A stretch of 64,000 nucleotides of DNA from Hyphomicrobiaceae bacterium (GTDB taxonomy: Bacteria > Pseudomonadota > Alphaproteobacteria > Rhizobiales > Hyphomicrobiaceae), in assembly GCA_031367715.1 (NCBI GenBank), contig JANLQJ010000405.1, forward strand, positions 19,669-83,668, in the 5' to 3' direction. Below are positions 3,214 to 19,669 of this stretch, in pieces. A program made the position numbers and the translations under genes. Numbering within the stretch: position 1 is the stretch's first letter; each line of letters opens with the position of its first letter. The notes under the pieces are model-generated. The model did not search any database, had not been told where the DNA came from, and saw only the letters and a list, made by a program, of their open reading frames with translations.

Positions 3214-6200
3214 TCAGATGGTGGCGGCGCGGGGCGTGCCGCGACCGAAACTTGGCGAGATCTGGAAAACCTTCACCGCCACGCTGGTGGGCGGCGTGCC
3301 AAAATCGGCGGTCTGCTGAGCACTCGTGTAGGTCACGGTCGGTGACGCGCTGCTCAGTGTCCGCACGACGCTGGCGCCCGACAGCACGTCGACCTCATAG
3401 GCCTCGTTGTCCTCGGCGAGCGGCACCTCGCGCTGCTCCCAATTGTCGCCGCCGATGCGTGTGCGACGCTTCCAGCCGATGGCAAGATCGCCGTCCGAAC
3501 GCACGCCAACGATATGGCTCGGGCTCAGCGGCCGCCGGCCGATACCCGAGAATCTGAGCGTTTGCGTCGTATAGGAAAGATGCCCGAGCGGACGGTTGGC
3601 CGGCCCAAAGCGCCAGGCCAGCGCCAAGCCGATCTGATCGAGGGTCTCGTCCAGCAATGCGACGCTGGTATCCAGGAACGCAAACGTCGCGCCGGCTGCC
3701 AGCATCGTCGCCATCGCGCCCTCGGTGCCGGCCTGACCGCGCAACAATCGGGTCAGCCGGTAGGTCCGATCAGCGATCAGATCCGCCTTGGCAAATTGCA
3801 GCACCTCCCAAATGCCGGGCGATGTCTCGATGGCGGCGGCATTGGCACCGGCCAGTACCGCGAGATCGCTTTGCGTGGCGAGCGTTCCCGAAGTCAGCTG
3901 CACGGTCAGCTGGTTGGCGCGATCCCAGCGGTTTACGGCACCGGCGGCAAACGCGACCGTTGTCACGCCAAGCGTGGCTTGCGCAGCTAGCATCGCGTTC
4001 AAGCGAAAGTCGATGCCATCGGCCGAGCGATAGACCGCAATGCCGCCGGGCCAGGGTGTTTGCGTTGCCGCGACGCGCGCTGCTATCGGCGACTCATCGC
4101 CCCTGAGCAGCGGCAGATCGAGGAATGCAATCAGTGGGCGTCCAAACGCTGCGGCGGCGGTCGCGGTGGTCTCTCGCTCGACGGCGCTCGAACTGTTGTA
4201 GACCGCACGCTGGATCGACAGCGCATCGATGCCGCGTCCAAGCCCGTCAGCCAGCGACGTGATGCGCAGTTCCAGCGAACGCCCAGGCAGTTGCAGCGTG
4301 ACGATGTCGCTCGGCTCCAGCGCCAGCCAGCTTTCTGGCAGCCGGAATTGCGCATGCTGCCGCGCCGCCCAGGCATCCTGCAGCAGCCGCTCGGCGATCG
4401 CCTGGCCCACCGCTGGCCGCAACACCATCGGAAGCTCGGCGTTGGAAATGCGTGTGCTGCTTGACGCCAGGCGCCGCGATTCGGCAGCCGACGATTGATA
4501 GCCGCGATCGGCATCCAGAAACCCCAGCCGCGCCACTGCAGGCAGCTCGGTCTCCTGGCGTCGCACCAGATGGAATGGCTCGGCCCCCGGCGCGGTTTCG
4601 ACCAGATTATCCGTGTTCAGAACCGCCACCGGGCCGCGCAAACCCCGTTGCGCGAAGCTGATCTTGTCGCCGCTCTCATAGCTGTCGAAGAAATAGGCCA
4701 GCTCCAGCGGCTGGATCGCTGCCCGCGCACTCATCACACGATCGACCACATAGCCATCGACCAAGCCGACCAGCGCGGACGTATCGAAGCTGACAAAGCC
4801 GTTTTCCGTCAGTATACTGCTCACTACGGCATCGAGCGCCACCGCCGCGATGCGGCCGGTAATCCAATGGCCGCGCTGCCAGTTGCCGGCATCGCCCCAG
4901 ACATCGGCGATCTGCGGAAAGGCCGGATAGGGCCGTGCATCCCAGGTGTAGACGAACATCCGCGCCGGATCGACCATGGGCGCGCCATAGAGGCTGGAGA
5001 TCGGATTCGCCGCAGTGCCAGCACCTTGTTTGAAGCGCTCCAGCATCGCCTGCAGAAAGCGGCGCTGCATGAGATCGTCGCGCCCGCCGCCGGAAAAATA
5101 CGGCAGCGCCGACTCGGCACTTTTCACATCGACGAAGGTGTTCGGCTGATTGGCCCCCTTGTCGACCGCCGGGCAGCCAAGCTCGGTGAACCAGAACGGC
5201 TTGCTCTGCGGCACCCAAGCGGTCGGCGTGGACGATTCGACGCCACCCGGGCGATGATAGTGCCGGTTGCCCCACCATGCCGCGATGTCCTTGAAGCGGA
5301 ACACCCAGGGCTTGCCGGCACCGTCGGTAATCGGTGTACGCACTTGCGCGTTGCGGGCCGCGGCACTGGCATAATACCAGTCATAGCCCTCGCCGGCGAC
5401 GATGTTGCCCTTCAGATAGGCAAGGTCATAGGTCGAGCTCGCGCCGGCAACCAGATCGGCGTGGGTGGTGCCATCGCGCCAGTCGGCGAGCGGCCAATAG
5501 ACGTCGATGCCAACGGCGTCGATCGCGGCGCAGGTCCACAGAGCGTCGAGATGGAAATAGACATCGTTCGATCCATCCGCTGGCTGATGACCGAAATACT
5601 CCGACCAATCGGCGGCATACGTTACTTTGGTCCCGGCGCCGAGTACCGTCTTGACGTCGGCGGCCAATTGAACCAGCGCGGCAACGAATGGATAGCTCGA
5701 TGCGCCCGAACGCGCGGTGGTCAGGCCCTTCAACTCAGAGCCGATGACAAATCCGTCGACACCACCGGCCGCCTTGCACAGATGCGCATAGTACAGAACC
5801 ATGCGCCGATAGGACCATTCGGCGGGTCCGGAGTAAGTCACGGTATCGCCGGCGATGGCGAAGTGCGCGACCGCCGCGCTGCCAACGAAGGCGTTGAGCT
5901 GCGTTGCCGCTGTCGCCGTCTTGTCAACCGTGCCGGGCCGTCCGGCGGCCGGATGCACGCTGATGCGCCCGCGCCACGGATAGGCTGCCTGGGCCGCGCC
6001 GCCATATGGGTCCGGCAGCCCATTGCCGGCCGCAATATCCATCAGAATGAACGGGTTGAAGGTGCATTTCAGCCCGCGCGCCGCAAGGTCGCGGATGGCC
6101 GCAATGACGCTGCCATCGGACGGCGTGCCGCCATAGGCGGGCGCTCCATCGGCGCTCGATACCACGATGGCGGAGCTTCGCGTCACGCCGGCGACGCTCC

Positions 6201-7149
6201 AGACCCGGGGCGTGGTAACCTTGCTGGCATTATCAATGCGCGGTTTCAGCTGACAGTTGCCGACTCTCAAATCATCGCCGAACCAGCTCACCACCAGCGA
6301 GACATTAGCGGCCGCGGGCAGACTTTCCTGCAACTGATCGAGCGACGCCGACCAGTCGGTCTTGCCGGTCAAGGTATGCATGTTCTCGGGGGTCGAAGCG
6401 CCACCCGGGGTAACCCGCTGCACCTCGGCGGTTTCATAGACGAACTCGCCGGCGCCCGGGATCATGGTGACGGCCGGCACCAACTGCTCAAAACCATCGA
6501 CGGCGCGAAACACCTCGAACGACAGTTGCGGCAGCCGGTTGCCGAATTTGGCCAGCGCCAAACGCTCGAACACGACATAGGCGATGCCGCGATAGGCCGG
6601 CGCCAGTCCCGCGCCTTCCTTGGCCTCGATCAGGCTGTCGGGCATCTGCAGCGTACTGCCGGCATGCAGTCGCCAGGTGATGCCATTGAGATCGAGTTCC
6701 TTGCCGTCCGCCCATACTTTGCCGACATGGGTGATTGGCCCCTCGCACAGCGCAACGGCGAAGTTGGCGAAATAGCTGAAGCTGGTGGAGGTCGGGCCGC
6801 CGCCGCCGAGACCCTTGCCACCGCCGCTATTGCCACCGCTCGAGCTGGCGACCTCCTCGAAATTGGTCGCCCAGATGACTTCGCCGGCGATCCGTGCACG
6901 GCCATAGAGCCGCGGGATCGGCGCTCCCTGGCGCGACGCCATGATCTTGAGCGAGGCCAGGCGCGGCCCTTCCAGCACGCGGCCCTGGCCGCTGGCCCCG
7001 AACAGCGCCTGATCGACATAGGAGCCGGCGAGCCCGCCGAGCGCCTGGCCGACCACCGCGCCGGTGATGGTGGCGCCAAGAATGGTGGCCGTCGGCAACA
7101 GCGCGCCGCCGATGGCAGCGCCGACTGCGGCAAGGGCAAGAGTGGCCAT
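3214..7149 (-). CDS. GTA g15-type host-specificity / baseplate multidomain protein
   Basis: 1311-aa ORF, last gene of the tail module. Hydrophobic Gly/Ala N-terminus MATLALAAVGAAIGGALLP. Size and position match RcGTA g15 (rcc01698)-like proteins (recall). Confidence 0.8.
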   Translation of the reverse strand: MATLALAAVGAAIGGALLPTATILGATITGAVVGQALGGLAGSYVDQALFGASGQGRVLEGPRLASLKIMASRQGAPIPRLYGRARIAGEVIWATNFEEVASSSGGNSGGGKGLGGGGPTSTSFSYFANFAVALCEGPITHVGKVWADGKELDLNGITWRLHAGSTLQMPDSLIEAKEGAGLAPAYRGIAYVVFERLALAKFGNRLPQLSFEVFRAVDGFEQLVPAVTMIPGAGEFVYETAEVQRVTPGGASTPENMHTLTGKTDWSASLDQLQESLPAAANVSLVVSWFGDDLRVGNCQLKPRIDNASKVTTPRVWSVAGVTRSSAIVVSSADGAPAYGGTPSDGSVIAAIRDLAARGLKCTFNPFILMDIAAGNGLPDPYGGAAQAAYPWRGRISVHPAAGRPGTVDKTATAATQLNAFVGSAAVAHFAIAGDTVTYSGPAEWSYRRMVLYYAHLCKAAGGVDGFVIGSELKGLTTARSGASSYPFVAALVQLAADVKTVLGAGTKVTYAADWSEYFGHQPADGSNDVYFHLDALWTCAAIDAVGIDVYWPLADWRDGTTHADLVAGASSTYDLAYLKGNIVAGEGYDWYYASAAARNAQVRTPITDGAGKPWVFRFKDIAAWWGNRHYHRPGGVESSTPTAWVPQSKPFWFTELGCPAVDKGANQPNTFVDVKSAESALPYFSGGGRDDLMQRRFLQAMLERFKQGAGTAANPISSLYGAPMVDPARMFVYTWDARPYPAFPQIADVWGDAGNWQRGHWITGRIAAVALDAVVSSILTENGFVSFDTSALVGLVDGYVVDRVMSARAAIQPLELAYFFDSYESGDKISFAQRGLRGPVAVLNTDNLVETAPGAEPFHLVRRQETELPAVARLGFLDADRGYQSSAAESRRLASSSTRISNAELPMVLRPAVGQAIAERLLQDAWAARQHAQFRLPESWLALEPSDIVTLQLPGRSLELRITSLADGLGRGIDALSIQRAVYNSSSAVERETTATAAAAFGRPLIAFLDLPLLRGDESPIAARVAATQTPWPGGIAVYRSADGIDFRLNAMLAAQATLGVTTVAFAAGAVNRWDRANQLTVQLTSGTLATQSDLAVLAGANAAAIETSPGIWEVLQFAKADLIADRTYRLTRLLRGQAGTEGAMATMLAAGATFAFLDTSVALLDETLDQIGLALAWRFGPANRPLGHLSYTTQTLRFSGIGRRPLSPSHIVGVRSDGDLAIGWKRRTRIGGDNWEQREVPLAEDNEAYEVDVLSGASVVRTLSSASPTVTYTSAQQTADFGTPPTSVAVKVFQISPSFGRGTPRAATI

Positions 7150-7191
7150 CGAAGCACCGTTTCCAGGCTGCTGGTTACAATCAGTACACGC

Positions 7192-7629
7192 TCAATCGGC
7201 GACGCCCGGCAGCGCGAAAGCACCGGCGATGCGGCGGCGCCACCAGGGGCCGAGATGCACCTCGCTGACCGGCACGCCCTCCTGGGCGTGGATCATGCGG
7301 CCGTCCTCAACCAGGATCGCGGCATGCTTGGCGACCGCGAAGGTGTTGACGCGGAAGATCAGGACATCGCCCGGCTGCATCGCCACGCTACTGATCTGGC
7401 GCAGATGCCGGCCGGCAGCCGACAGCAGCGCCTCGTTGCCGGTTGCTTCGGCCCAATCGCCAGTATACGGACCGGGCGACTCCGGCTCGTCGGCATAAAT
7501 CTCGCGCCATAAGCCGCGCACCAGCCCGATGCAATCGCAGCCGACTTGCCGCAGGCTGGCGCGGTGATGATAGGGCGTACCCAGCCAGCCGCGCGCAAGT
7601 CGCGTGATATCGGTCCGTGTCACGCTCAT
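7192..7629 (-). CDS. NlpC/P60-family phage cell-wall peptidase (GTA g14-like)
   Basis: GWLGTPYHHRASLRQVGCDCIGLVRGLWRE gives the catalytic Cys context, with a downstream His in HAAIL. 145 aa, in the g14 position. Confidence 0.85.
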   Translation of the reverse strand: MSVTRTDITRLARGWLGTPYHHRASLRQVGCDCIGLVRGLWREIYADEPESPGPYTGDWAEATGNEALLSAAGRHLRQISSVAMQPGDVLIFRVNTFAVAKHAAILVEDGRMIHAQEGVPVSEVHLGPWWRRRIAGAFALPGVAD

Positions 7630-8519
7630 GAGAACCTGCTGCCGCCGGTGTTGCTGCCCTCACCCGCCGCCGGATAGGACGTGATGAAATCGTTGCCCGG
7701 CATATGCGGGCAACCGCGAAAATTGAGCCCATTGGCGAATTTCGCGCGGCAGGTGGCAAATTGCTTGTCGCAACCGGCGCTGATCGAAAAACTGTCGCCA
7801 AGCGTGAGCGGACGGTTTGGGTCCAGCCAGATCTCGATGCGCACGCCAGCGGTACTGACGCTGTGCCGCTTCACCTCGGCCTTGCGCGCCGCATTGCCGC
7901 CATTGACCCAGGTCACCAGGCCGCGCGTGAACCAATCATCGGCATACGCGCCGAGACCGTTGACCAGGATGATGCGCTCATCGAGCAGCGCCGCAACCGT
8001 GCCCGTGCCAGTGAATGCCGCCCCCGCCAATGCCACGCCGCAGCGCGCATCGCCCAGATCGGCATCGCAGCCATACTGGTAGATGCGTCCGCGCTCCTGG
8101 CTGAGATAGTGCGCCAAACCACGCACCTCGGCGGCGAAGGCGGTGCTGCCGCGCTTGACCTCGCCAATGCTGCCCGTGCGCACCAGCAGCCGCTGCGCTG
8201 GTGCCGCCCAGTTGACACGGAAGATCTCGATGCCGGCATTGTCGTAGCGGCCGCTCGACAGATCATCGGCACTGAGACGATCCGAGCGCAATGCACCCGA
8301 CAGTTCCTGATTGCCCACCGCCAGACCAACCTCGGCATGCAACTCGCTGGCGGTAAAGCCACTCGACGCCTCGAACACGGTGCCATCGAACACGACGTCG
8401 CGATCGTGATCGGTGAACCCCAACCGCGAACCGTCATTGCGGGTGACGCGCCAGCACCAGGCCAGTGTTGTGGCGCCGCTGCTGAGATGGGCCTGCAAAG
8501 CCGCTGGAACAGATCTCAC
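7626..8519 (-). CDS. DUF2163 / BR0599-family tail hub protein (GTA g13-like)
   Basis: The track ORF 7626..8897 has an Arg/His-rich N-terminal extension that overlaps g12. I reassigned the start to GTG 8519, giving a GTGA overlap with the g12 stop. The product then begins VRSVPAALQAHLSSGATTLAWCWRVTRNDGSRLGFTDHD. Confidence 0.8.
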   Translation of the reverse strand: MRSVPAALQAHLSSGATTLAWCWRVTRNDGSRLGFTDHDRDVVFDGTVFEASSGFTASELHAEVGLAVGNQELSGALRSDRLSADDLSSGRYDNAGIEIFRVNWAAPAQRLLVRTGSIGEVKRGSTAFAAEVRGLAHYLSQERGRIYQYGCDADLGDARCGVALAGAAFTGTGTVAALLDERIILVNGLGAYADDWFTRGLVTWVNGGNAARKAEVKRHSVSTAGVRIEIWLDPNRPLTLGDSFSISAGCDKQFATCRAKFANGLNFRGCPHMPGNDFITSYPAAGEGSNTGGSRFS

Positions 8520-9154
8520 AGGCGCACCTCGAGGATTGGGATGTGCGGGATCGAACCGGCAGCAAAATTCTGCAGGTTGACCTCGATGCGGTCGGTATCG
8601 AAGCGCACCGGCACATCGAACTCGTAGCCGGCGGTGATGGCCGCGCTGGCCGCCGGGATGTGGCCGGCCAGGAAGCTGATCAGCCCGGTGGCGTAGTCGG
8701 TGGAAAAGACGCCGCCTTCCAGCTGCGCCACGCCCGCGACCTTCACCAGCAATGTTCCTTGCACCGGCTTCTTGATCGCCCGTCGATAGGGCGCAAACCC
8801 ACCACCATAGACTTTCGTCAGTTGAAAGACGGTGGTGGCGCCGTCGCCGGTGCCGATGGTCTGGTCGGTGGCAGCCGGCATCCGCGACGATGGGCAAGAG
8901 CGAAAATCAGCATGATCGCGCCAGCGGAAGCCGTGCAAACGGCCGCGCCGCTCCTCGAAGAAAGCGAGCACCGCATGCAGATCATCGACGCTGCGCACGC
9001 CGTAGCCTGCGTTGTAGCTGCGCCGCGAATCGGCCCAGCGGCTGTTGCGCTCCTCAAAGCCCGAGGCCAGCGTCACCACATCGGTGCGCCGCTCCGGACC
9101 ACCCACCGCGCCCTTGGAAAGATTGGTCGGAAAGCGCGTTTCATGAAAAGCCAA
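8516..9154 (-). CDS. DUF2460 distal tail protein (GTA g12-like)
   Basis: MAFHETRFPTNLSKGAVGGPERRTDVVTLASGFEERNSRW is the typical N-terminus of the TIGR02217/DUF2460 family (recall). Located in the g12 position. Confidence 0.85.
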   Translation of the reverse strand: MAFHETRFPTNLSKGAVGGPERRTDVVTLASGFEERNSRWADSRRSYNAGYGVRSVDDLHAVLAFFEERRGRLHGFRWRDHADFRSCPSSRMPAATDQTIGTGDGATTVFQLTKVYGGGFAPYRRAIKKPVQGTLLVKVAGVAQLEGGVFSTDYATGLISFLAGHIPAASAAITAGYEFDVPVRFDTDRIEVNLQNFAAGSIPHIPILEVRL

Positions 9155-9172
9155 GGGAAACCCTCCGTAGAC

Positions 9173-9754
9173 CTACAAATTGCGCTGTCCGGCCGACAAT
9201 CCACGCTGCAGCATGGCCGCGATCTGCGTCTGCGAGCGTTGGAAACCGGCTACATCGGGCGTACTGATATTGAAGGTGATGTTGGCCCCGCCGCCCCCGC
9301 CCGAGCGCACGCCGAGCTGCCCATCGGCGCCCCGCGTCAGCGGCAGGATGGCCTCGGCGCCCTGTTCGCCAGCGACCGCGGCGCGACCATCCGACAACGG
9401 AAAACTGATCGGCGAGGAGATCACGCCGCCGCGCGCGAACGGCACGGTGATGCCGGAGCCCGCCGCTCCGCCACTGAGCGAACCGGTAAGACCACCGAGG
9501 ATCTGATTGAACAGCCCACCGAGGGCATTTTCCAAAGGTTTGGTCGCGGCCGCCAGCGCCAGGTGCGCAAAGCTCCGCACCAGCGACTTGATGGTGTCCT
9601 CGAGCTTCTTGCCGCGCACCGCCACCTGCTCGAAGGAAGCGATCAGCCGGCTGGCGAACTGATCGCCCAGCGAACTCATATCGCTCAGTGATCGTTTCAA
9701 TTGCTCCCCGTTGGCGGCAATCTCAGCCGTCGCGGCCTGAATGGTGGTCGGCAT
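9173..9754 (-). CDS. Short tape measure protein (GTA g11-like)
   Basis: About 193 aa from MPTTIQAATAEIAANGEQLKRSL. Helical N-terminus and Gly-rich C-terminus, located between the chaperones and DUF2460. Start is either 9754 or 9772. Confidence 0.7.
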   Translation of the reverse strand: MPTTIQAATAEIAANGEQLKRSLSDMSSLGDQFASRLIASFEQVAVRGKKLEDTIKSLVRSFAHLALAAATKPLENALGGLFNQILGGLTGSLSGGAAGSGITVPFARGGVISSPISFPLSDGRAAVAGEQGAEAILPLTRGADGQLGVRSGGGGGANITFNISTPDVAGFQRSQTQIAAMLQRGLSAGQRNL

Positions 9755-10022
9755 CGTCCGTCGACTCCTCAATTATCTGGTCAGGAAACACCGCCATCAG
9801 CGCTTCCAACTCGGCGCGCGCCGGCGCGGCCCGCCGGCGGCGGCCGAAATGGCCTTCCAGGGCGGCATCGAACTCGCGCGGCGTCATGGCCCAGAACGTG
9901 GCAGGCTGCAGTTTCAGGGCGCCGAGCCCGATCGTCATGGCGAGCGGCCAGTCGAATGGCTCGGCCCCGGACGAGCCCGAAGATGCCCGGGGCCTCAGGC
10001 GTTTCCCGCTGTTGGCTCGCAC
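9723..10022 (-). CDS. Tail assembly chaperone extension (GTA g10.1-like), in the -1 frame of g10
   Basis: Contains EPFDWPLAMTIGLGALKLQPATFWAMTPREF, the rcc01693-like motif (recall). The ORF overlaps the g10 3' end and sits in the -1 frame (10339-10022=317). Confidence 0.7.
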   Translation of the reverse strand: MRANSGKRLRPRASSGSSGAEPFDWPLAMTIGLGALKLQPATFWAMTPREFDAALEGHFGRRRRAAPARAELEALMAVFPDQIIEESTDDADHHSGRDG

Positions 10023-10339
10023 CCCGATGGCGCCCCGCCAAAGGTCGCCGCCAGCAATCGTGCAACGATGTCGATCGCACCGGTCGCCCCGCCGTCGATA
10101 CGCATCTCGGCGACGGCAGCATCCTCGATCATGTGCCCGCCCGAGCGCAAACCGGCACCGAGAATGCGGATGGCATCGCGCGAAGAGATCCGCCCGCTGC
10201 CGAAACGCTGTGCCAGCGACAGCATGTCGTCAACCCCGAAGGCGTCTTCCAGTTCGGCCAGCGCACCGAGCGTCAGGCACAGCCGGCGTGGTACTCCGTC
10301 GATGACCGCCTCGATCTCGCCGCGATGACGATTGGCCAT
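9995..10339 (-). CDS. Tail assembly chaperone (GTA g10-like)
   Basis: 114 aa, MANRHRGEIEAVIDGVPRRLCLTLGALAELEDAFG..., immediately after the major tail gene. Confidence 0.75.
   Translation of the reverse strand: MANRHRGEIEAVIDGVPRRLCLTLGALAELEDAFGVDDMLSLAQRFGSGRISSRDAIRILGAGLRSGGHMIEDAAVAEMRIDGGATGAIDIVARLLAATFGGAPSGCEPTAGNA
10001..10007 (-). promoter_or_regulatory. Candidate -1 programmed frameshift heptamer G_GGA_AAC
   Basis: The minus strand reads gcG GGA AAC gcc TGA in the g10 frame. Slipping -1 gives GGG AAA CGC CTG AGG..., translating to GKRLRPRASSGSSGAEPFDW, which is exactly the g10.1 ORF text. Confidence 0.65.
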
Positions 10340-10351
10340 GACAATCCTCCG

Positions 10352-10762
10352 CTAGGTTGTGAAGATCAACTCGCCCGCCGATTCCAGCGTCATGTCGAAA
10401 GTCACTTCGGCATTGTACTGACCAGCAAAGTCGAGCGACGAGATCTGGAACGGTCCTTGTACGGTGCCGAGACCCGGAATGATCACCTGCCAGTTGCGGA
10501 TCGTCCCGGCAAAGAAGGTATCGCGAACGAGCGCATCTGTGGCCGAGTTCTTGAAGATGCCGTTGCCGGTGATGCGGGCATTGCGCACGCCAGCTCCCGC
10601 CAACAGTTCGCGCCATAGGCCGGTCGATTCCGCATTGGTGGTGTCGACCGTGGCGGCGTTGAAAGCGAGGGTGCGCGTGCGCAGACCCGCCACCGTGATG
10701 TAGGTGCCGCTACCGGTCTGGTCTATTTTAACCAGCAGATCGCGGCCTTTCTGGGCTGCCAT
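10352..10762 (-). CDS. Major tail protein, TP901-1-type (GTA g9-like)
   Basis: MAAQKGRDLLVKIDQTGSGTYITVAGLRTRTLAFN, 136 aa, in the g9 position. Confidence 0.85.
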   Translation of the reverse strand: MAAQKGRDLLVKIDQTGSGTYITVAGLRTRTLAFNAATVDTTNAESTGLWRELLAGAGVRNARITGNGIFKNSATDALVRDTFFAGTIRNWQVIIPGLGTVQGPFQISSLDFAGQYNAEVTFDMTLESAGELIFTT

Positions 10763-10793
10763 GAGGAAGGGCTCCTTGGATTAAGAGGCAACA

Positions 10794-10939
10794 GTCATCC
10801 CGGATGCGCCGCGGCGTTTTGACGGTGCGGCGCATCCGGGATCGCTCTGGGCTCAGGCGTGACGCAACTGGAGCACGTACCCGACCAGGTCGCGTGTCTG
10901 CAGTGCACCGTCAAAACGCTGCACTGCGCACGGGATGAC
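10794..10939. repeat. Nested palindromic REP/MITE-like element in the g9-g8 spacer
   Basis: Outer inverted repeat GTCATCCCG (10794-10802) / CGGGATGAC (10931-10939). Hairpin 1 pairs CCCGGATGCGCCGC (10799-10812) with GCGGCGCATCCGGG (10827-10840). Hairpin 2 pairs GCAGTGCA (10900-10907) with TGCACTGC (10920-10927). The two loops (GCGTTTTGACGGT and ACCGTCAAAACGC) are reverse complements of each other. Confidence 0.8.
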
Positions 10940-10956
10940 AGGTGGGTCGGCGATCA

Positions 10957-11367
10957 TCACGCCGGCTCGGTCACCGCGCGGTAGCGCACAATGCCGTGGA
11001 TGGTGACGCCGTCCGGATCGCGGCGGACGTCGGAGAATTGTTGACGCAGGCTGACCAGCACATGCCCGGTCAGTGTCAATGACGCTGTATGCAGAACATC
11101 CCGCAGCGCGGCGATGATGCGTTGCGCCTCACCGCGGCCGCCGCCCTGCGACCAGACATGCAGCGTCAAGATGTGCTCCTCGCCATCCTCCGTGCCCGTC
11201 CCCCAATCGCTCGATGCGGTCTGGCCGAGACCGACGTGCGGGTAGGGCGCCGCCTGTGGCACGTCGTCATAGATGCGCGCGCCGCCCAGCAGCGTCGTCA
11301 GCCAAGCACTGCCGATAAGCACGCCATACACGGCCTGTTGCAATTGCCAACTGGCGCTGCCGCTCAT
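10957..11367 (-). CDS. DUF3168 tail terminator-like protein (GTA g8-like)
   Basis: 136 aa, ...IYDDVPQAAPYPHVGLGQTASSDWGT...ILTLHVWS.... Position and motif fit DUF3168 (recall). Confidence 0.75.
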   Translation of the reverse strand: MSGSASWQLQQAVYGVLIGSAWLTTLLGGARIYDDVPQAAPYPHVGLGQTASSDWGTGTEDGEEHILTLHVWSQGGGRGEAQRIIAALRDVLHTASLTLTGHVLVSLRQQFSDVRRDPDGVTIHGIVRYRAVTEPA

Positions 11368-11693
11368 AAATTGCGCTCCTCGGCGAGAATCCGAAGGAAA
11401 GGCTCGGGGCCGTCGCGGTTCAGCACCGCCTCAATGACCAATAACCGGCTGCCAAACCGCAACCGCATGGCCGGCAGCACATCAGTGCGCCTACGGATGG
11501 TGACCTCGTGCATCACCCGGCCTTGCAGACCCTCGGCGATGAACTGTTGCGTCCCGGCAAGGCTTTTTAGCTCGGCCCACAGTTCGGCCACCGCGGACCA
11601 CGTCACCGTCACGCCGCCGCCACCATCGGCAACGCGCGCCGGTTGCTCCAGCGTCACACGACGGCGCAAGGCTGCAATCGCGGGTCTGCTCAT
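11364..11693 (-). CDS. Head-tail adaptor/stopper, SPP1 gp16-like (GTA g7-like)
   Basis: 109 aa, LRRRVTLEQP...VTVTWS...LWAELK. Start and stop overlap the neighbouring genes by 4 nt. Confidence 0.8.
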   Translation of the reverse strand: MSRPAIAALRRRVTLEQPARVADGGGGVTVTWSAVAELWAELKSLAGTQQFIAEGLQGRVMHEVTIRRRTDVLPAMRLRFGSRLLVIEAVLNRDGPEPFLRILAEERNL

Positions 11694-12271
11694 AGCCGCC
11701 TCACACGATAGGGATCGATCAGATCACACACCATCGGTGGCAGGCGGATCGAGCCACCGCCGCTGGCATCGGCAAGTTCGCGATGTTCGTACCAGTGCCC
11801 GACCAGCACCAGCAGCGCAACCCGCAAGGCGGCAGGAACGTCGGTCGGCAACGCGCCGTGCCCAGCCGTGAAATCAATGGCGATGCCGTTTCCAGGCCGC
11901 AACGGCTGCGGCCAGGCAATGGCGCCGCGGCGGATCAGGCGCGGCAGCGAGCCCATCCCGTCGAGCAGATAGCCGCTCGCCGGCAGGGTCGCGAAGCTGT
12001 CGTCCATGGCATAGACCCGCACCGCCTCCACCGATTGCACTGGTGCCAGCGGCAGCGCCACCGCATAGCCCGCCGGCCAGGCGTCAAGCCAATAGGTCCA
12101 GCCCTGCGTGATCAGGGCACGACCCAACCCCCGCTCGAGTTCGGAGCGCGCGCCAGTGATCAGACGGCTGATGAGTGCATCGTCGTCGGCGCTGTCCACG
12201 CGCAGATGCGCCTTGGCATCGGCGAGCGAGACCGGCTCCTGCGCGGGAGCGGAATTGGCTACGAGCGACAT
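11690..12271 (-). CDS. Head-tail connector, gp6-like (GTA g6-like)
   Basis: VSLADAKAHLRVDSADDDALISRLITGARSELERGLGRALITQ is the classic gp6-like connector N-terminus. Confidence 0.8.
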   Translation of the reverse strand: MSLVANSAPAQEPVSLADAKAHLRVDSADDDALISRLITGARSELERGLGRALITQGWTYWLDAWPAGYAVALPLAPVQSVEAVRVYAMDDSFATLPASGYLLDGMGSLPRLIRRGAIAWPQPLRPGNGIAIDFTAGHGALPTDVPAALRVALLVLVGHWYEHRELADASGGGSIRLPPMVCDLIDPYRVRRL

Positions 12272-12385
12272 GGGTAACTCGCTGAAAGAAGAGTGAGGGG
12301 TGAGGGGTGAGTGGCAAAGAGGTGACGTCGCGCTGGGTCTTTTAGCCGCTCACGACCCACAACTCACCACTCACGCCTGCTTGGT

Positions 12386-13639
12386 TCAGCTCACGCCGAA
12401 CTTCAGCAGCTTGATGGCGTCGAAGTCCTGCACGCCGCCACCGACTCGTTTGGTGGTGTAGAACAAGACATAGGGTTTGGCCGTGAACGGATCACGCAGG
12501 ATGCGCATGCCGACGCGGTCGACCACCAGATAGCCGGCCCGGAAATCGCCGAAGGCGAGCGAGAAACTGTCGGTGGCAAGCACCGGCATGTCCTCGCTCT
12601 CCAAGATCGGGAAGCCCATGAACTGGGGCGCCGCTCCCGGCTGGATCGCGGGCTGCCAGAGGTAGTTGTTGGTGCTGTCCTTCAGTTTACGGATGACCGC
12701 CTGGGTGGTCCGGTTCATGGCAAAACGCGCATTGGGCCGGTACTGAGCTTTCAGCGCATAGACCAGGTCGATCAGCTTGTCGCTGGGGGCGGTGGCGGGC
12801 AGCCCGCCGGCGACGCCGGTGGCCAGGTACCCCATCGAGCCCCAGGCCCAGGAGGCCTGCGCGAGCATCGGATAGGCCAGGAAACCCTTGGGTTTGCTGG
12901 TGCCGTCGCCGATGACGAAGGCGCTGCCTTCCTGTTGCGCAAAGGTGGTCTTCACTTCATCGGCCACCCACTGGTCGATGTTCACGACCGCATCGTCGAG
13001 TAGCGCGGTAGTCGCCGCCGGCATGGCGTAGATCTCGAAAGTGGGAAAGCTCAGATTAGCCAGCGCGGTGTTGCCGGTCTGCGGGCGCGCCGCCGCTTCA
13101 GCCGCCCAGCCAGCCGCGAAACCCGACGTCGAGAACGGCTTGTTGTAGACATTGCTGGAAACCTGCCGAACGGTCGCGGCGGCCCGGATCGGCGAGATGT
13201 CGCGGATGGCGAGCGATACGGCGTGCTCGGTCTCGGGCGGCACCAGATAGCCGCCATCCGAGCTGGAGCCGATCGACAACGCCTTGGTTTCCAGCGCCGA
13301 CAATGCTCCGGACTCGCCTTTTCGCACATAGCTCTCGAAGGCCGCCTTGTGCTGCAACTGCACGCTCGAACGCGGCAGGCCGCCGCCGATCGCCGGGCGG
13401 GACTGTTTGAGCAGCATGCTGTCGATCAACTGCTTGTGCTCGTCCAGCGACTGGTTGATGCGGTTGACCTTGTCCTCGCTGAGGACATCGGCCGAACCAC
13501 GCCGCTCGATCTGATCGATGCGCTGATCGTTCTCGGCCTTGAAGGCCTCGAAGCCGCGCATGAATTTGTCATAGACCACGGCAGCCTCGGGGCTCAGGGC
13601 CTTGGTTTCAGGAGCCGAATTGGGAGTCTCTGCGTTCAT
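12386..13639 (-). CDS. HK97-family major capsid protein (GTA g5-like)
   Basis: Start trimmed to ATG 13639, giving an ATGA overlap with the protease stop. N-terminal coiled delta-like region (FEAFKAENDQRIDQIERRG), then DGGYLVPPE. 417 aa. Confidence 0.9.
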   Translation of the reverse strand: MNAETPNSAPETKALSPEAAVVYDKFMRGFEAFKAENDQRIDQIERRGSADVLSEDKVNRINQSLDEHKQLIDSMLLKQSRPAIGGGLPRSSVQLQHKAAFESYVRKGESGALSALETKALSIGSSSDGGYLVPPETEHAVSLAIRDISPIRAAATVRQVSSNVYNKPFSTSGFAAGWAAEAAARPQTGNTALANLSFPTFEIYAMPAATTALLDDAVVNIDQWVADEVKTTFAQQEGSAFVIGDGTSKPKGFLAYPMLAQASWAWGSMGYLATGVAGGLPATAPSDKLIDLVYALKAQYRPNARFAMNRTTQAVIRKLKDSTNNYLWQPAIQPGAAPQFMGFPILESEDMPVLATDSFSLAFGDFRAGYLVVDRVGMRILRDPFTAKPYVLFYTTKRVGGGVQDFDAIKLLKFGVS

Positions 13640-14256
13640 CTCGTCCTCGTCTTTCTGTGGGGGGTGCGGGCTAGTTGGTTCAAGCGAAGGGCTGCCTCGC
13701 CGAGGCCCTCCCGGAAGGCGGCATCGTCGGTCGCGGCGCCCGATTTCACGGTCGAGATCAGCGCGCCAGGCTGCATCGGGAAAGTGACGACCGAAATCTC
13801 CCACAGGTCGATTTTCGTCAGCCTGCGGACACCGGAGCGCGCATCGCGCACACCCTTCTCGGTGCGAAAGCCGATCGAAAGCCCTTCCAACGCACCGGCC
13901 TGCATCAGCGACAGCGCCTCGCGAGCGCGCCTGACGTCGAGCAACAGACGCCCACGCACCTTCAGCCCACGGGCATCTTCGCTGAGCTGCTCCCAGATGC
14001 CGATCGGCTCGGCCGGATCGTGCTGGAACAGCATCCTGATGCCGCCGGTCCCGCGCCGGCTGAGCGTTTCGCGGAAGGCGCCGGGCACGACGATGTCGCG
14101 GGCGAGATCCTCAATGTTGAACAGGCTGGCATAGCCTTCGAAGGTGCCTTCGGCATCGACCGCAGTGAGATCGAGACGGGCGCGCTTGAACTCGTTCGGC
14201 ATGGCGGGAGCGGTCATGGGGTGGACCATGTTGGAGATACTCAGTTCGCGTTTCAT
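13636..14256 (-). CDS. HK97-family prohead protease (GTA g4-like)
   Basis: TFEGYASLFNIEDLARDIVVPGAFRETL...MLFQHD...GLSIGF...EISVVTFPMQP. An internal Met (14226 or 14214) could be the true start. Confidence 0.85.
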   Translation of the reverse strand: MKRELSISNMVHPMTAPAMPNEFKRARLDLTAVDAEGTFEGYASLFNIEDLARDIVVPGAFRETLSRRGTGGIRMLFQHDPAEPIGIWEQLSEDARGLKVRGRLLLDVRRAREALSLMQAGALEGLSIGFRTEKGVRDARSGVRRLTKIDLWEISVVTFPMQPGALISTVKSGAATDDAAFREGLGEAALRLNQLARTPHRKTRTR

Positions 14257-14291
14257 GTGTTGGGTCGTGGGTAGTCAGTGAACGCGGCGAC

Positions 14292-14750
14292 TCAGGCTCC
14301 GCCCGCGCCGGCCCCATACCCCGCGGCGGCGCGCTTTTCGTCGTTGGTCAGGAACCCCGCTGCATCGACGCGCGACCACAGCCCGTCCCGCTCGGCCGAC
14401 AGCGCCTCGATGGCGTCGAGATCGGCGCGCAATTCCAGGCCGCCGCCGTAGGCTGCGCCGAGCCAGTTCGACAACGCCTGCAGCGTGCGTGCGGTCAGCG
14501 GCAGCACGGTGTGGCGCCAGAAGGCACGATTGGCCTCTTGATAGTTGCCATGCGTATTGTCGCCGGGGATGCCGAGCAGCATGGGCGGCACGCCGGGCAC
14601 CAGCGCGATGTCGCGCGCTGCCTGGCGCTTGCTCTCGGTGACGTCCATGTCCTTGGGGCTGAGTGACCCATGCTTGGAGATTGGGCGCGCCAGTCGAGCC
14701 CGCCTTCCAGCAGCATCGGTCGGCCGGCGTTGCGGGCTTTAGTGTACAGT
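14292..14750 (-). pseudogene. Orphan, frameshifted copy of the portal gene 3' end (displaced native C-terminus)
   Basis: ORF 14292..14648 (MDVTESKRQAARDIALVPGVPPMLLGIPGDNTHGNYQEANRAFWRH...GYGAGAGGA-stop) parallels the C-terminus of the 437-aa portal. Further 5', ARNAGRPMLLEGGLDWRA continues in another frame, after an extra ~13 nt (around 14668-14682) absent from the full copy. Confidence 0.85.
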
Positions 14751-14754
14751 CCGG

Positions 14755-15057
14755 TCAAGGCTTGTAGCGGAGGCTGCCTGTTGTCTGATGCAGCATCCTG
14801 AGAAACGCAAGCAAGCCGTCCCCATCTGAGAAAGTTATGGTTGCGGGTGTCGTCCACCACCACAATCTCAACTCCTCTGGTGTATGCTTTCCGGTCAGCA
14901 GTTCATTTTCGAGGAACTCCCACACGACTCGCGTGTCTTCGGCGGTTAGCCCGACGAGCGCGAACTGCACCAGTTCGGTGGCCGAACCCGGTTCAAGTCC
15001 CTGGTGTAAATTTCGGCAAAGGCTATTGAATGCCTCTGGCTGCGCAATGCTTGTCAT
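14755..15057 (-). CDS. Putative CdiI-like immunity protein
   Basis: 100 aa. The ATG abuts the toxin stop (TAAATG). FNSLCRNLHQ...TAEDTRVVWEFLENELLTGKHTPEELRLWWW...DGDGLLAFLRML resembles CdiI-type immunity proteins paired with RNase-A-like CdiA-CT toxins (recall). Lies in AT-richer DNA. Confidence 0.55.
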   Translation of the reverse strand: MTSIAQPEAFNSLCRNLHQGLEPGSATELVQFALVGLTAEDTRVVWEFLENELLTGKHTPEELRLWWWTTPATITFSDGDGLLAFLRMLHQTTGSLRYKP

Positions 15058-15480
15058 TTAGTCCTCATTTAGCGGGAACGCGGAAACAACGAAGTATCCT
15101 TTCTTGGAGGTGGGGCTTCGCCGCAAGGACACCATCACACTATATGTATCCCGCATAACTGGTTGAGCTTGATCGTCAGCGACATACGCTTCGTAACCGG
15201 TGCGGCTTCGAAACTTCAGAAACAAATTCTGATACGGCAGCGCGTGCAACAATCCTCCGGCCACAAAGGCGGCCACTTTGTCTTGATTCGCCGCAATGGT
15301 TGCGTTGGTCAACTTGGCAGCCGCTTCCATCGACGGAAACGATCCCGCTCTCTTCTCACCAATTACGCCAATGAGAGGAATATTGACTCGATTTCCCAAT
15401 AGCCTCGCCTTGAGGTATTGAGGTGGCTTGGCGACGTGCCGTGCGATTGTATGCCCACCCAAACCCTCCTCCTCGACCAA
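15058..15480 (-). CDS. Putative RNase-A-like CdiA-CT-type toxin domain, in frame with the portal gene
   Basis: (TTG)VEEEGLGGHTIARHVAKPPQYLKARL...AGSFPSMEAAAKLTNATIAANQDKVAAFV...KGYFVVSAFPLNED. The N-terminal GGHTxxRHV and C-terminal hhSAFP fit my memory of Pfam RNAse_A_bac (PF18431). It shares the portal reading frame (16824-15480=1344), separated from it by one TAA plus 10 sense codons. Confidence 0.55.
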   Translation of the reverse strand: MVEEEGLGGHTIARHVAKPPQYLKARLLGNRVNIPLIGVIGEKRAGSFPSMEAAAKLTNATIAANQDKVAAFVAGGLLHALPYQNLFLKFRSRTGYEAYVADDQAQPVMRDTYSVMVSLRRSPTSKKGYFVVSAFPLNED

Positions 15481-15510
15481 GTCAATGGGATAACCTAGGT
15501 TGCCTTGGGA

Positions 15511-16824
15511 TTAAATGGATTGGAGGGTGCCCATGCCACCTGAACCGCTCGCGCCGCCATCCGTCCACTCCCCGCCACCGGGTTGCCCCTTGGGGAGCCT
15601 TGGTTGGCCGGGGTTGAAGAGCTTTACTCGAACACCACTACCAGCCCCATACCCCACCGCCGCGCGCTTCTCGTCGTCCGTCAGGAACCCCGCCGCGCCG
15701 ACCCTTGCCCACAGCCCGTCGCGCTCGGTCGACAGCGCTTCCACCCCATCCAAATCCACGCGCAGCTCCAGCCCGCCGCCATAAGCCGCGCCCAGCCAGG
15801 CCGACAGCGCCTGCAGGGTGCGTCCCGTCAGCGGCAGGATGGTGTGGCGCCAGAAGGCGCGGTTCGCCTCCTGATAGTTTGCATGCGTATTGTCGCCGGG
15901 GATGCCGAGCAGCATGGGCGGCACGCCGAGCGCCAGCGCGATGTCGCGCGCTGCCTGGCGCTTGCTCTCGGTGAAGTCCATGTCCTTGGGGCTGAGTGAC
16001 ATGGCGCGCCAGTCGAGCCCGCCTTCCAGCAGCATCGGCCGGCCGGCGTTCTTGGCGCCCTGGAAGGTGCTCTCCAGTTCCGATTTCAGTCGCGCATACT
16101 GTTCCGCCGTCAGCTGACGATCCGCCGCAGTATAGACCAGCGCGCCCGAGGGTAGAGCGCTATTGTCCAGCATCGCCTTGTTCCAGGCGCTGGCGGCGTT
16201 GTGGATGTCGATGGCGGTGGACGCGGCCTCGATCGGCGACAGGCCGTAATAGTCATTGGTTGGATGAAACAGCGCCTGGTGCAGAATCGGCCGCACACCG
16301 GGCACGGCATCGCCGCTGTAGCTGACCTTATGGCCGTTCACGGTGTAATCGTAGGAAGCCGGCCAGCCATCTGTTCCTGGAATAATCGAGATACGGTCCG
16401 GACGCAGCACATACAGTTCGCGCAAGGTCGAGCCGGTCGCGACGGCCTCCAGGTAGGCATTGCCTGAAACCAGCAGGTAACTGTACCACGCCTCCAGCAG
16501 TTCGGCGCGCGATTGGGTGGGATTGGGCACGCGCAACAGATCGAGCAATGGGTGATCTGTGATCTCTTGATCTCCGGCATAGAGACAGAACGCCACCGAG
16601 GCGGCGGCCTCGGCGATCATCCGCACGCTGCGGTAGACCACCGGGTTCTGCATGAAGCCTTCGCGCGCAAAGGCGCCGTAGTCGCGCGGGCTCCACACCG
16701 GCTGGCGCTGGTACTGCAGCGCGATCAGCGGCGCGGCGGCGCTGGTCTTGGCTTCGGGCGCGGCGATCGGGGCATAGCGGGAGAGGCCGGCGTAGCGCGC
16801 CAGCGCCGAGAGGATTGGGGACAT
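15511..16824 (-). CDS. HK97-family portal protein (GTA g3-like) with a ~40-aa C-terminal extension
   Basis: 437 aa with portal-typical NAGRPMLLEGGLDW and PPMLLGIPGDNTH. Past the native end seen in the orphan copy, it continues VRVKLFNPGQPRLPKGQPGGGEWTDGGASGSGGMGTLQSI. Confidence 0.9.
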   Translation of the reverse strand: MSPILSALARYAGLSRYAPIAAPEAKTSAAAPLIALQYQRQPVWSPRDYGAFAREGFMQNPVVYRSVRMIAEAAASVAFCLYAGDQEITDHPLLDLLRVPNPTQSRAELLEAWYSYLLVSGNAYLEAVATGSTLRELYVLRPDRISIIPGTDGWPASYDYTVNGHKVSYSGDAVPGVRPILHQALFHPTNDYYGLSPIEAASTAIDIHNAASAWNKAMLDNSALPSGALVYTAADRQLTAEQYARLKSELESTFQGAKNAGRPMLLEGGLDWRAMSLSPKDMDFTESKRQAARDIALALGVPPMLLGIPGDNTHANYQEANRAFWRHTILPLTGRTLQALSAWLGAAYGGGLELRVDLDGVEALSTERDGLWARVGAAGFLTDDEKRAAVGYGAGSGVRVKLFNPGQPRLPKGQPGGGEWTDGGASGSGGMGTLQSI

Positions 16825-16846
16825 GGGGTTGAACCTTTCGGTGTCG

Positions 16847-18286
16847 TCAGAGGGACCGGATCTTCGGCTCGCCAGATTTCGTCAGCATAAGATCGGTCAG
16901 GGCCCAGACCAGCGCATCCAGGCGATCAGGGCTGCGGCCGCCCGACAGGCCCGCCGGGCCGAAATCACACATCTGATCTTCCAGCGCTGCAAACGTTCCC
17001 ACATGGCTCACCATTCCTCGTTCGTACAATGCCGCCACCGGCTCGGCGCGGATCCATTTGCCGCGCGTCGCACGGACTTTCCGTATCGGGACATCCTGAT
17101 CGATCTGGCGGATCACGCCTTCCACCAGATCACCGCCCTGGTTCACCTCGGCGACGATGCGGTCGGCTTCGAACTCGGCCAGCGCCGACACCGCCGCCTT
17201 GGCCCACACCAGCGGCGCGTGGCCCGCGATGGTGCGGTCGGCCAGCACATAGCCACGCCCGCCGGCATCCACACCGGCCACCACGATGCCACAGGCGTCG
17301 GCCTTGGCACCGCTGGTCACTGGCGGATCGACCGCGACCACGATGCGTTTCAGGGCCGGCAACTCGGCGATCCGCACCCGCTCGATATCGGTCCGGCGCC
17401 ACAGCGCGTCGGCGCGATCCTCGACGATTTCGCCGTCCAGCTCCTGGCGGCCGAGCGTGCTCGCCCCGTAGCGGGCGCGCATCTGCTCGATGAAGCCGGG
17501 CGCAAGGTTGGCGAAGTTATCGAGCGTGCGCGAGCGGCTGACCGCCGTTGCCGCATCCGCCAGCAACCGCTTCAACAGCGCGATCGGGCGCGGCGTGGTG
17601 GTCACCACCTGGCGCGGACGTTGCCCGAGCCGCAGCGCGAACTGCAGCATGTCCCAGGTTTTGTCCGCATAGCGCCATTTGGCCAGCTCGTCGCACCAGG
17701 CAGCGCCAAACTGCGGCCCGCGCAGCCCGTCCGGTTCCTCGGCCGAGAACAGCTGCGCGATAGCGCCGTTGGACCAGGTTAGTTGCCGTTTCGATGCTTC
17801 GTATACGGGGCGTTCGTGCGGCGCATGTACCGCGAGCAATCCCGACACGCCCTCGACCATGACCGCGCGCACCTCCGCCATGGTCTCGCCGATCAGCGCG
17901 ATGCGCGCAATCGCGGTATTGGCCAGCGGTTCGAGCCCGAGCGCCTGCGCCCTGACCCATTCGGCGCCGGCGCGGGTTTTTCCCGAGCCGCGTCCGCCGA
18001 GCACCAGCCAGGTGCGCCAGGTGTCGGTCGCGCCAGAGTCCTGGTCGCCGCCCGGCGGCTCTGCGGCAGGGAACTGCTCGCCGGCAGCCGGTTCGGCTGC
18101 AAGAGCGCGTGCAATCTCCCTGGGGAGCTGATCGAGTCTTGCCCAGCTGATCCAGTCATGCCACAGGCGGGCTACCCGCGCCGCAGGCAGGCCGCCAATG
18201 AACTCCTCACTGGTGCCGTCGCGCACCGAGGCTTGCAATCCGATCCGCAAGTTCCTGGCGCCAGTCAGCGACATTGTCGTCTCCAT
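16847..18286 (-). CDS. Terminase large subunit (GTA g2-like)
   Basis: Walker A in WLVLGGRGSGKTRAGAEWV. 479 aa, directly upstream of the portal gene. Start (18286 or 18274) overlaps the g1 3' end by about 70-80 nt. Confidence 0.85.
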   Translation of the reverse strand: METTMSLTGARNLRIGLQASVRDGTSEEFIGGLPAARVARLWHDWISWARLDQLPREIARALAAEPAAGEQFPAAEPPGGDQDSGATDTWRTWLVLGGRGSGKTRAGAEWVRAQALGLEPLANTAIARIALIGETMAEVRAVMVEGVSGLLAVHAPHERPVYEASKRQLTWSNGAIAQLFSAEEPDGLRGPQFGAAWCDELAKWRYADKTWDMLQFALRLGQRPRQVVTTTPRPIALLKRLLADAATAVSRSRTLDNFANLAPGFIEQMRARYGASTLGRQELDGEIVEDRADALWRRTDIERVRIAELPALKRIVVAVDPPVTSGAKADACGIVVAGVDAGGRGYVLADRTIAGHAPLVWAKAAVSALAEFEADRIVAEVNQGGDLVEGVIRQIDQDVPIRKVRATRGKWIRAEPVAALYERGMVSHVGTFAALEDQMCDFGPAGLSGGRSPDRLDALVWALTDLMLTKSGEPKIRSL

Positions 18287-18683
18287 ACGGTGAAGTGGTG
18301 GTGCCGGCCGGGGTGTCGGTAGACCCGGGCATCACCTTCTCGCGCCAGGCCGCTTCTTTGGCGTCGAGCTTGTCGAACGTGGTCAGCAGCGAAGCGAAGG
18401 CGCGCGTGCTGCGTTCGTCGTCGGTGGGTTTGGCTTCGGGATCTTCCATGCGGGTCTCTAGTTGCTTGAGCTTGGCGACGATGATCCGGCGCAACACCGC
18501 CCGCTCCGAGACGGCCCCTTCGAGCCGCAGCGAAGCGTGTGGGGGCCAGTTGAATTTCTGGGCGCGCAGATAGAGCGTGTTGCGGTTGATCTCGCATTGG
18601 CTGGCGATCTCGGCGATGCTGAACTCGCCTTCGAAATACAGGCGTTCGGCCTTCGCCCAGGTCGATGGGCGGATGGTGCGCAT
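18207..18683 (-). CDS. Small terminase-like / HTH protein (GTA g1-like)
   Basis: Start trimmed to ATG 18683 (GGGAG upstream). MRTIRPSTWAKAERLYFEGEFSIAEIASQCEINRNTLYLRAQKFNW is HTH-like. First gene of the cluster. Confidence 0.65.
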   Translation of the reverse strand: MRTIRPSTWAKAERLYFEGEFSIAEIASQCEINRNTLYLRAQKFNWPPHASLRLEGAVSERAVLRRIIVAKLKQLETRMEDPEAKPTDDERSTRAFASLLTTFDKLDAKEAAWREKVMPGSTDTPAGTTTSPYGDDNVADWRQELADRIASLGARRHQ

Positions 18684-18788
18684 GGGGGTAGGCTCCCGAA
18701 GGATTTGGGAAAGGGGATAGGGAACGGGGAACAGGTAATGACCCCGCGGCTTCTGGCTCACTTTGGTGATGGGACAAAAAGACACCAT

Positions 18789-19580: not shown

Positions 19581-19669
19581 GAATCGGTTCCGGAATCCGC
19601 AACGGCGGGGCATACTGGCAGCCGTAAGGCCTGAGCGGAAGTGCCAATCGGGAGCACATCGGCTGCGCC

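Follow-up and report, generated by a model that had tools for sequence, protein, structure and literature searches.

A probable nonsense mutation separates an RNase A-fold toxin module from the portal gene of a gene transfer agent-type cluster in a Hyphomicrobiaceae bacterium

MuF-toxin fusions are established as polymorphic toxins associated with phage heads (Zhang et al. 2012, PMC3482391; Jamet et al. 2017, PMC5576092), and effectors such as PBECR RNase, 2H and InPase domains have been described as fusions to MuF or portal domains in phages, where they are predicted to be injected (Iyer et al. 2017, PMC5512222). Amongst gene transfer agents (GTAs), the RcGTA particle possesses a g3 portal that forms a dodecamer, bears a crown domain and encloses a channel of 28 Å; the contents of the particle are ejected into the periplasm (PMC7296036). 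In the present study, we describe a locus of a Hyphomicrobiaceae bacterium (contig JANLQJ010000405.1) in which a portal gene of this kind and a predicted RNase A-fold toxin module occupy a single reading frame and are separated by one in-frame stop codon. The locus lies within the 64-kb stretch of DNA that was analysed (referred to as the window); positions are those of the whole stretch and all features are on the minus strand unless marked (+). Comparison with related loci suggests that a CAA to TAA nonsense mutation, genuine and fixed in the population, probably uncoupled the toxin from an ancestral portal-toxin fusion.

The portal gene (15511..16824), a homologue of RcGTA g3 of the HK97 type, encodes 437 residues from an ATG start and matches the Pfam family Phage_portal (PF04860) over positions 1-320 of the 321 in the profile (E=4.6e-89), as well as TIGR01537, portal_HK97 (E=3.7e-71). 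The C-terminus of this open reading frame (ORF) reads ...GGMGTLQSI and is followed by the stop codon TAA at 15513..15511, in the context TAA-T. Beyond it the frame continues with ten sense codons (SQGNLGYPID) up to the first TTG (15480..15478) and remains open until another TAA at 15060..15058, amounting to 150 sense codons after the stop. The distance from 16824 to 15480 is 1344 nucleotides, a multiple of three, which places portal and toxin in one frame; the arrangement with one TAA, a shared frame and ten codons before the TTG, as laid out in an earlier note on this DNA, thus agrees with the ORF coordinates. The truncated portal extends 42 residues past its conserved core, and this Gly-rich C-terminal tail (residues 396-437, 15514..15639) is derived from the toxin cassette, with homology to the native 3' remnant discussed below ending at portal nucleotide 1184. 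The tail retains a linker motif, NPGQPRLPKGQPGGGEWT, at 15612..15562, which is kept in all toxin cassettes.

The toxin module (15058..15510) is predicted to encode a nuclease of the CdiA-CT type with an RNase A fold. The region after the stop aligns with the entire Pfam profile RNAse_A_bac (PF18431; positions 1-113 of 113, E=4.7e-13, 50.4 bits against a cutoff of 27), and a profile of the toxin family recognises chain B of PDB entry 5E3E, the CdiA-CT of Yersinia kristensenii, with coverage of the whole chain (E=1.4e-7). Four residues, His175, Arg186, Thr276 and Tyr278, have been shown to matter in CdiA-CT(Ykris), and Phe is common at the position of Tyr278 (PMC5435912). The toxin in the window keeps every residue that is invariant in the family along with the equivalents of His175 and Arg186, and has Ser at the position of Thr276 and Phe at that of Tyr278, the same replacements being present in the intact relatives at loci L003 and L051 (locus labels are our own). 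Judging from these profile matches, the module is a member of the RNase A-fold CdiA-CT family PF18431.

A 100-residue ORF (14755..15057) lies directly downstream, with its ATG abutting the toxin stop (TAAATG) and its own GAGGA upstream. An ORF of 90-100 residues is conserved at this place behind the RNase toxin, in the window as well as in at least 11 other loci, with homologues immediately after the toxin in L001, L003-L007, L009, L016, L030, L038 and L051. Searches of this ORF against Pfam, PHROG, NCBIfam and PDB sequences returned no match, and it is on position and synteny that we regard it as a putative cognate immunity gene.

The evidence for an ancestral fusion comes from relatives of the locus. 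A query comprising linker and toxin identified 26 proteins, of which 21 were aligned, and the position of the TAA is read through in all 21. In a scan of one genome per species, 37 loci were obtained, all from Alphaproteobacteria and mostly from families of Hyphomicrobiales (Hyphomicrobium, Methylocystis, Methylosinus, Nitrobacter, Afipia and Xanthobacteraceae). Nine of them (L003, L005, L006, L007, L012, L025, L028, L032 and L038, the isolate Methylosinus sp. Sm6 being represented by L028) contain an uninterrupted, full-length portal-toxin ORF, spanning 607-762 codons from stop to stop; in each of the five fusions checked directly, the Phage_portal and RNAse_A_bac domains were both present and complete. 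The locus closest to the window in the linker, L051, is another such fusion, broken only by a run of undetermined bases in the scaffold. In the alignment column of the TAA, seven of the nine intact full-length fusions have Gln, L051 has CAG and L003 has GCG (Ala).

The continuous ORFs of the relatives are colinear with the locus through linker, stop position and toxin, and the ten codons after the stop correspond to the conserved beginning of the toxin, GYPID(L). Because of this colinearity, the shared frame is best read as ancestral and not as a product of chance. The earlier note had recognised the shared frame and had called it suggestive only, on the ground that it would arise by chance one time in three; its observation holds, whereas that caution falls away, as the colinear alignment goes far beyond what chance would give. 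Amongst the portal-linked loci, none showed the pattern of a stop followed by a separate toxin gene with its own Shine-Dalgarno (SD) sequence in varying frames. Instead, the sense codon that an inactivated fusion would predict in orthologous loci was found, Gln in most of them, together with the intact full-length fusions themselves.

The stop codon also recurs in other assemblies. Two contigs are recorded with the exact 437-residue portal product, and there is a further variant of 437 residues (P0028). Using this variant and the immunity protein, contigs carrying the identical TAA junction were recovered from seven other assemblies (GCA_043779465.1, ERZ28573512, ERZ28573526, ERZ27315235, SRR20217174, SRR20217210 and SRR23617219), which are 99.4-100% identical to the window. 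The TAA allele is fixed in the population sampled, and the fixed stop itself is an ordinary nonsense mutation.

A TAA-type contig (L050) and the intact fusion L051 were both found to originate from the metagenome ERZ28573555, with toxins that are 85% identical and immunity proteins that are 53% identical. Disarmed and armed lineages apparently coexist in one metagenome.

The course of events that we consider probable begins with a single gene encoding an RcGTA-type g3 portal, a Gly-rich linker (NPxQPRxPxG..GGxWT) and an RNase A-fold toxin, with the immunity gene directly downstream. In the lineage of the window, a Gln codon, most simply CAA, would have changed to TAA, such that the portal no longer carries the toxin. 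As CAA accounts for five of the six Gln codons in the cassette of the window, a single C-to-T transition would be enough. The toxin may now be untranslated or may appear as a free cytoplasmic domain of 134-140 residues through reinitiation at an in-frame TTG, in which case the retained immunity protein would neutralise it; in either case the portal could presumably no longer bring it into particles. With the toxin cut from the portal and the immunity gene kept, the locus would be disarmed, yet it would retain immunity to the toxins that armed relatives carry.

Divergence in the toxin is compatible with such a history. In a three-way decomposition, the nonsynonymous divergence (dN) of the toxin was 0.070 on the branch of the window, 0.032 for L003 and 0.064 for L051, with no clear acceleration. 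The ratio of dN to synonymous divergence is unusable as a test of relaxed selection, synonymous sites being saturated against the nearest relatives at a dN of about 0.10, and the absence of single-nucleotide polymorphisms from the toxin and immunity genes among near-identical contigs carries no power on selection. A dN that is not elevated, together with the retention of key residues, is consistent with a recent nonsense event. Either the mutation happened recently or selection still acts to some degree on the toxin.

Several observations weigh against this account. L003, the closest relative, has Ala in the column of the stop, and the exact ancestral codon is thus a reconstruction. The 150 downstream codons are perfectly intact and include a TTG at 15462 with a good SD sequence, so the toxin may be expressed and under selection. 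Stand-alone toxin ORFs occur in the GTA clusters of Nitrobacter and Afipia, and hence separation from the portal is by itself no proof of loss of function, although these ORFs keep the linker motif, which a free toxin from the window would be without. Moreover, the independence of the assemblies with the TAA is uncertain, as the Logan assemblies may share runs with those of the European Nucleotide Archive (ENA), even though several accession series are represented.

The alternative that survives best is that termination and reinitiation, or a de novo start, at TTG 15462 or 15480 yields a free RNase domain which is still in use, for example as a partner of the immunity protein in an addiction pair resembling a toxin-antitoxin system, or through packaging or release by another route when a GTA producer lyses. 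We regard it as rather improbable. The region concerned (15460..15474) comprises an SD-like tract, GAGGAGGAGGG, at 15474..15464, which includes AGGAGG (15473..15468), and, after a spacer of 5 nucleotides, another TTG in the same frame (15462..15460), located 48 nucleotides past the stop. The earlier note had found no convincing SD sequence for its TTG and had placed GGAGGAGG just inside the ORF; the location of the tract is correct, but the tract does serve a plausible start, the second TTG. Gene callers selected this TTG in five assemblies, and the resulting product of 134 residues would represent a free toxin domain, its N-terminus lying two residues ahead of where the solved domain (5E3E) begins. 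Neither the toxin ORF nor its key residues are disrupted, and the stand-alone toxin ORFs in the GTA head modules of Nitrobacter and Afipia also speak for a toxin that functions apart from the portal. Amongst approximately 25 distinct relatives, a start-capable codon at the position of 15462 is present in the lineage of the window alone.

However, the SD-like tract encodes a conserved EEE, and Leu is most often written as TTG in the cassette (8 of 15 codons), so an arrangement of this kind would be met fairly often by chance. The product would also be without the NPxQPR..GGxWT motif, with which all toxin cassettes are equipped, even those that stand alone, and without a carrier or an export signal, and a promoter scan of the cassette detected no promoter-like site. 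The case for independent translation, raised in the earlier note, is accordingly somewhat stronger by virtue of AGGAGG-N5-TTG, but chance suffices to account for it.

Readthrough of the TAA, whether programmed or tolerated at a low level, would equip a minority of the twelve portal subunits with the toxin, an idea also put forward in the earlier note. The frame is preserved, the sequence downstream is intact and homologous to real fusions, and near-cognate decoding of UAA typically inserts Gln, the presumed ancestral residue. Nevertheless, a stop at this position was seen in none of the 21 homologous proteins and in none of the ten full-length portal-toxin loci, and the intact fusions would load all twelve subunits. 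The context is TAA-T, and in E. coli no context is reported to terminate more efficiently than UAA followed by U. The RNA structure around the stop is unremarkable (fold z=0.10 against shuffled sequence), no tRNA or suppressor gene was detected within the 64-kb window, and TAA also serves as the stop of the toxin gene itself. None of the features tested supports readthrough of the TAA, which is unlikely, and its use as a means of arming a minority of subunits appears very doubtful indeed.

Two further explanations can be dismissed briefly. That TAA is a sequencing or assembly error for a sense codon, an option left open in the earlier note and one for which a single-base difference from CAA would be enough, is effectively refuted by the recurrence of the TAA, flanks included, in seven further assemblies (GCA_043779465.1, three from ENA and three from Logan) and by the two 437-residue portal variants, the exact product being on two contigs. 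That portal and toxin were originally separate genes sharing a frame by chance, for which there is a prior probability of one in three, is already refuted by the alignments, in which the portal tail, the stop position and the ten seemingly intergenic codons are colinear with continuous ORFs in at least ten loci and the first TTG falls inside the conserved GYPIDL motif.

Two other candidates were considered and rejected. A change of genetic code in which TAA is a sense codon is contradicted by the TAA that ends the toxin ORF right before the ATG of the immunity gene. Breaks of the portal-toxin frame were also observed in other loci, namely a frameshift in the toxin (L009), a frameshift in the poly-Gly linker (L029), a deletion (L030) and a frameshift in the portal (L035). 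A recurrent recoding site does not account for these cases, as they differ in kind and position and some belong to metagenome-assembled genomes built from indel-prone long reads.

The nonsense mutation draws attention to a wider family of portal-borne toxins. The same portal C-terminus and linker were found fused to RNAse_A_bac, WHH/Colicin-DNase and CdiA_C domains and to several unclassified tails. The WHH/Colicin-DNase domain is followed by a SUKH immunity protein in L002 and L009, and the CdiA_C fusions include a full-length portal fusion of 700 residues in Methylocystis (L033). In L007, L009, L029 (the complete genome of Methylocystis sp. JAN1), L032, L035 and L038, the interval between g3 and g4 holds arrays of orphans, each consisting of a portal fragment, linker and toxin, with or without an immunity gene, and displaced pieces of the portal gene are interspersed among them. 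In the GTA clusters of Afipia and Nitrobacter, the RNase toxin is encoded by a stand-alone ORF between g4 and g5 (L018, 5698-6624; also L022, L023, L027, L031 and L039), with a short N-terminus unrelated to the portal that contains repeats resembling "RFMRPDAHRWIRP" and the motif NPxQPRVPAG..GGxWT.

The motif NPxQPRxPxG, followed after 3-5 residues by GGxWT and then by poly-Gly, travels with the cassettes (L001-L039) irrespective of the type of toxin or carrier. No match to the motif was obtained in Pfam, PHROG, NCBIfam or PDB sequences. It is a candidate signal for targeting to the head or for processing by the prohead protease. A profile of the portal C-terminus and linker, searched against a database of 5.8 billion proteins, detected only fragments of at most 250 residues, from which no count of full-length architectures is possible.

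Some further arrangements were noted in these clusters. Motif-bearing ORFs after the capsid gene in L027 (9236-9982) and L039 (5702-6604) have unclassified tails containing "DHHIVEQ", possibly HNH-like, with no Pfam hit. In L002 (2877-7512), IS66-family elements and a large serine recombinase lie between fragmented portal pieces and a portal-fragment toxin array within the GTA cluster, the array consisting of an RNase A toxin followed by WHH/colicin-DNase with SUKH.

The base composition and layout of the locus also bear on how the cassette may have arrived. The GC content of the linker-toxin-immunity cassette is approximately 0.53-0.55, compared to 0.66 across the whole portal gene, and the cassette is likewise of low GC content in L003 and L051. 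We interpret this contrast as the mark of a C-terminal cassette obtained by horizontal transfer, with recombination into the conserved 3' portion of the carrier gene. Downstream of the immunity gene, blastn detected the displaced native 3' end of the portal gene (14308..14731), a direct repeat of portal nucleotides 775-1184 (16050..15641) with 85% DNA identity and a 14-nucleotide indel that causes a frameshift; a residual ORF of this remnant (14648..14292) matches positions 214-320 of the PF04860 profile. The cassette would have entered by recombination inside the 3' region of the portal gene, pushing the native 3' end downstream as a frameshifted remnant, which is the way in which polymorphic toxin loci swap their C-termini.

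Identity between the two portal copies is uneven, being about 0.92-0.97 in the second and third 60-nucleotide windows and about 0.75-0.85 elsewhere. At six of eight population variants in the remnant, the variant is the base of the other portal copy. This suggests gene conversion between the repeats or cross-talk in assembly, and not independent decay.

Considering the same carrier with variable toxins, the orphan arrays, the displaced C-terminus and the low-GC cassette, the architecture is that of a polymorphic toxin system for which the GTA portal acts as the carrier, as deduced from gene organization. The earlier note had anticipated a fusion, which is borne out for the ancestor; the GTA identity of the cluster, the displaced 3' remnant of the portal and the polymorphic nature of the toxins had escaped it.

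We tentatively suggest, as a possibility that falls short of being probable, that RcGTA-type particles of Hyphomicrobiales are armed, the portal, of which there are twelve copies and whose C-terminus lies within the head, carrying exchangeable toxin domains that have cognate immunity genes. Delivery of these toxins would discriminate kin, the lineage of the window would be disarmed but immune, perhaps with minority arming through rare readthrough or reinitiation, and the linker motif would act as a signal for head targeting or release by the protease. Given that RcGTA ejects its contents into the periplasm, a delivered toxin would presumably need to be released from the portal, to unfold and to find a route across the inner membrane.

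The cassette resides in a head-tail gene cluster of approximately 15.6 kb (3214..18788), delineated by Pfam hits, with the order g1-like ORF, terL, portal, protease, capsid, g6-g9, g12, g13, g14 and g15. The gene terL matches Terminase_6N and Terminase_6C, the portal gene (g3) Phage_portal, and the prohead protease gene (g4), the next native gene of the cluster (13636..14256), Peptidase_S78 (PF04586, E=4.8e-36); the capsid gene (g5) matches Phage_capsid. These are followed by g6-g9 (head-tail connector, head completion, tail completion and tail tube), g12 (DUF2460), g13 (phiJL001_Gp84_N and BR0599), g14 (NlpC/P60) and g15 (GTA_TIM, Phage-tail_3 and Rcc01698_C). With this colinear order and the hallmark genes g12, g13, g14 and g15 all present, the cluster is classified as RcGTA-type, an assignment made here from the genes.

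Immediately upstream of terL lies an ORF of 193 residues (18207-18788) that matched nothing in Pfam or NCBIfam; it occupies the spot expected for a g1 or small-terminase-like gene. According to gene calls on the near-identical contig L040, the cluster is flanked by genes for a class A penicillin-binding protein (Transgly/Transpeptidase) and a protein with a CxxCxxCC domain, at window positions 19670-21925 (+) and 19122-19613 (-). Flanking genes of cellular type fit a GTA locus of the chromosome better than a prophage equipped for integration.

A literature search identified no paper linking GTAs with portal-borne toxins or immunity genes, and the family of swappable portal-borne GTA toxins with immunity genes is apparently undescribed. 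The stop codon thereby points to the GTA portals of Hyphomicrobium, Methylocystis, Methylosinus and their relatives as putative carriers of a polymorphic toxin system complete with immunity genes and orphan arrays, and it is this architecture, rather than the stop, that deserves follow-up. It has long been asked why bacteria keep GTAs. Should the particles deliver toxins to non-immune neighbours, GTAs would gain a direct role in competition and kin selection. The occurrence of the TAA lineage beside a lineage with an intact fusion in one metagenome would offer a natural comparison of "toxin-off, immunity-on" with the armed state.

Amongst known systems, programmed readthrough, such as that producing C-terminally extended minor coat or structural proteins in some viruses, resembles the locus in having an in-frame stop between a structural protein and an extension domain. 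Here, however, the stop is not conserved, its context is not leaky, no stimulatory structure is seen and the relatives are plain fusions. The pair CdiA-CT(Ykris)/CdiI (PDB 5E3E; Batot et al. 2017, PMC5435912) belongs to the same toxin family, PF18431, and shares the equivalents of His175 and Arg186, whereas the carrier in the present case is predicted to be a portal rather than the CdiA filament and the immunity protein has no detectable similarity to any PDB chain.

Resemblance in the mode of diversification is found with Rhs, CdiA and MafB loci, in which a new toxin-immunity cassette recombines into a conserved 3' region and the old end is pushed downstream; orphan arrays of a conserved fragment, toxin and immunity gene like theirs are seen in L029, L032, L035, L038 and L009. 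The displaced piece in the window differs in being the native, toxin-less end of a structural gene essential for particle assembly. The "polyvalent protein" architectures likewise place enzymatic effector domains on portal domains, but those are phage effectors directed against the host, with neither immunity genes nor cassette polymorphism. The domains described here are toxins of bacterial conflict (RNase A-like CdiA-CT, WHH/colicin-DNase and CdiA_C), with adjacent immunity genes and orphan arrays, in GTA clusters, and the linker-toxin module had no match in 50,697 phage records.

The closest likeness in operation is to the MuF toxins of temperate phages, which have a portal-associated carrier inside the head and variable C-terminal toxins, are proposed to travel inside the head and to enter the target together with the DNA, and are encoded in the packaging module beside terminase and portal. 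Searches of the carrier for MuF domains (PF04233, PF06152 and MuF3/4 models) found none, the only domain recognised being PF04860. The locus further differs from the MuF toxins in that the carrier is the portal itself, the host is an RcGTA-type cluster and not a prophage, and the orphan cassettes carry 3' fragments of the portal gene. By analogy, the portal-toxin locus is best understood as one that would work like a MuF toxin while standing outside that family.

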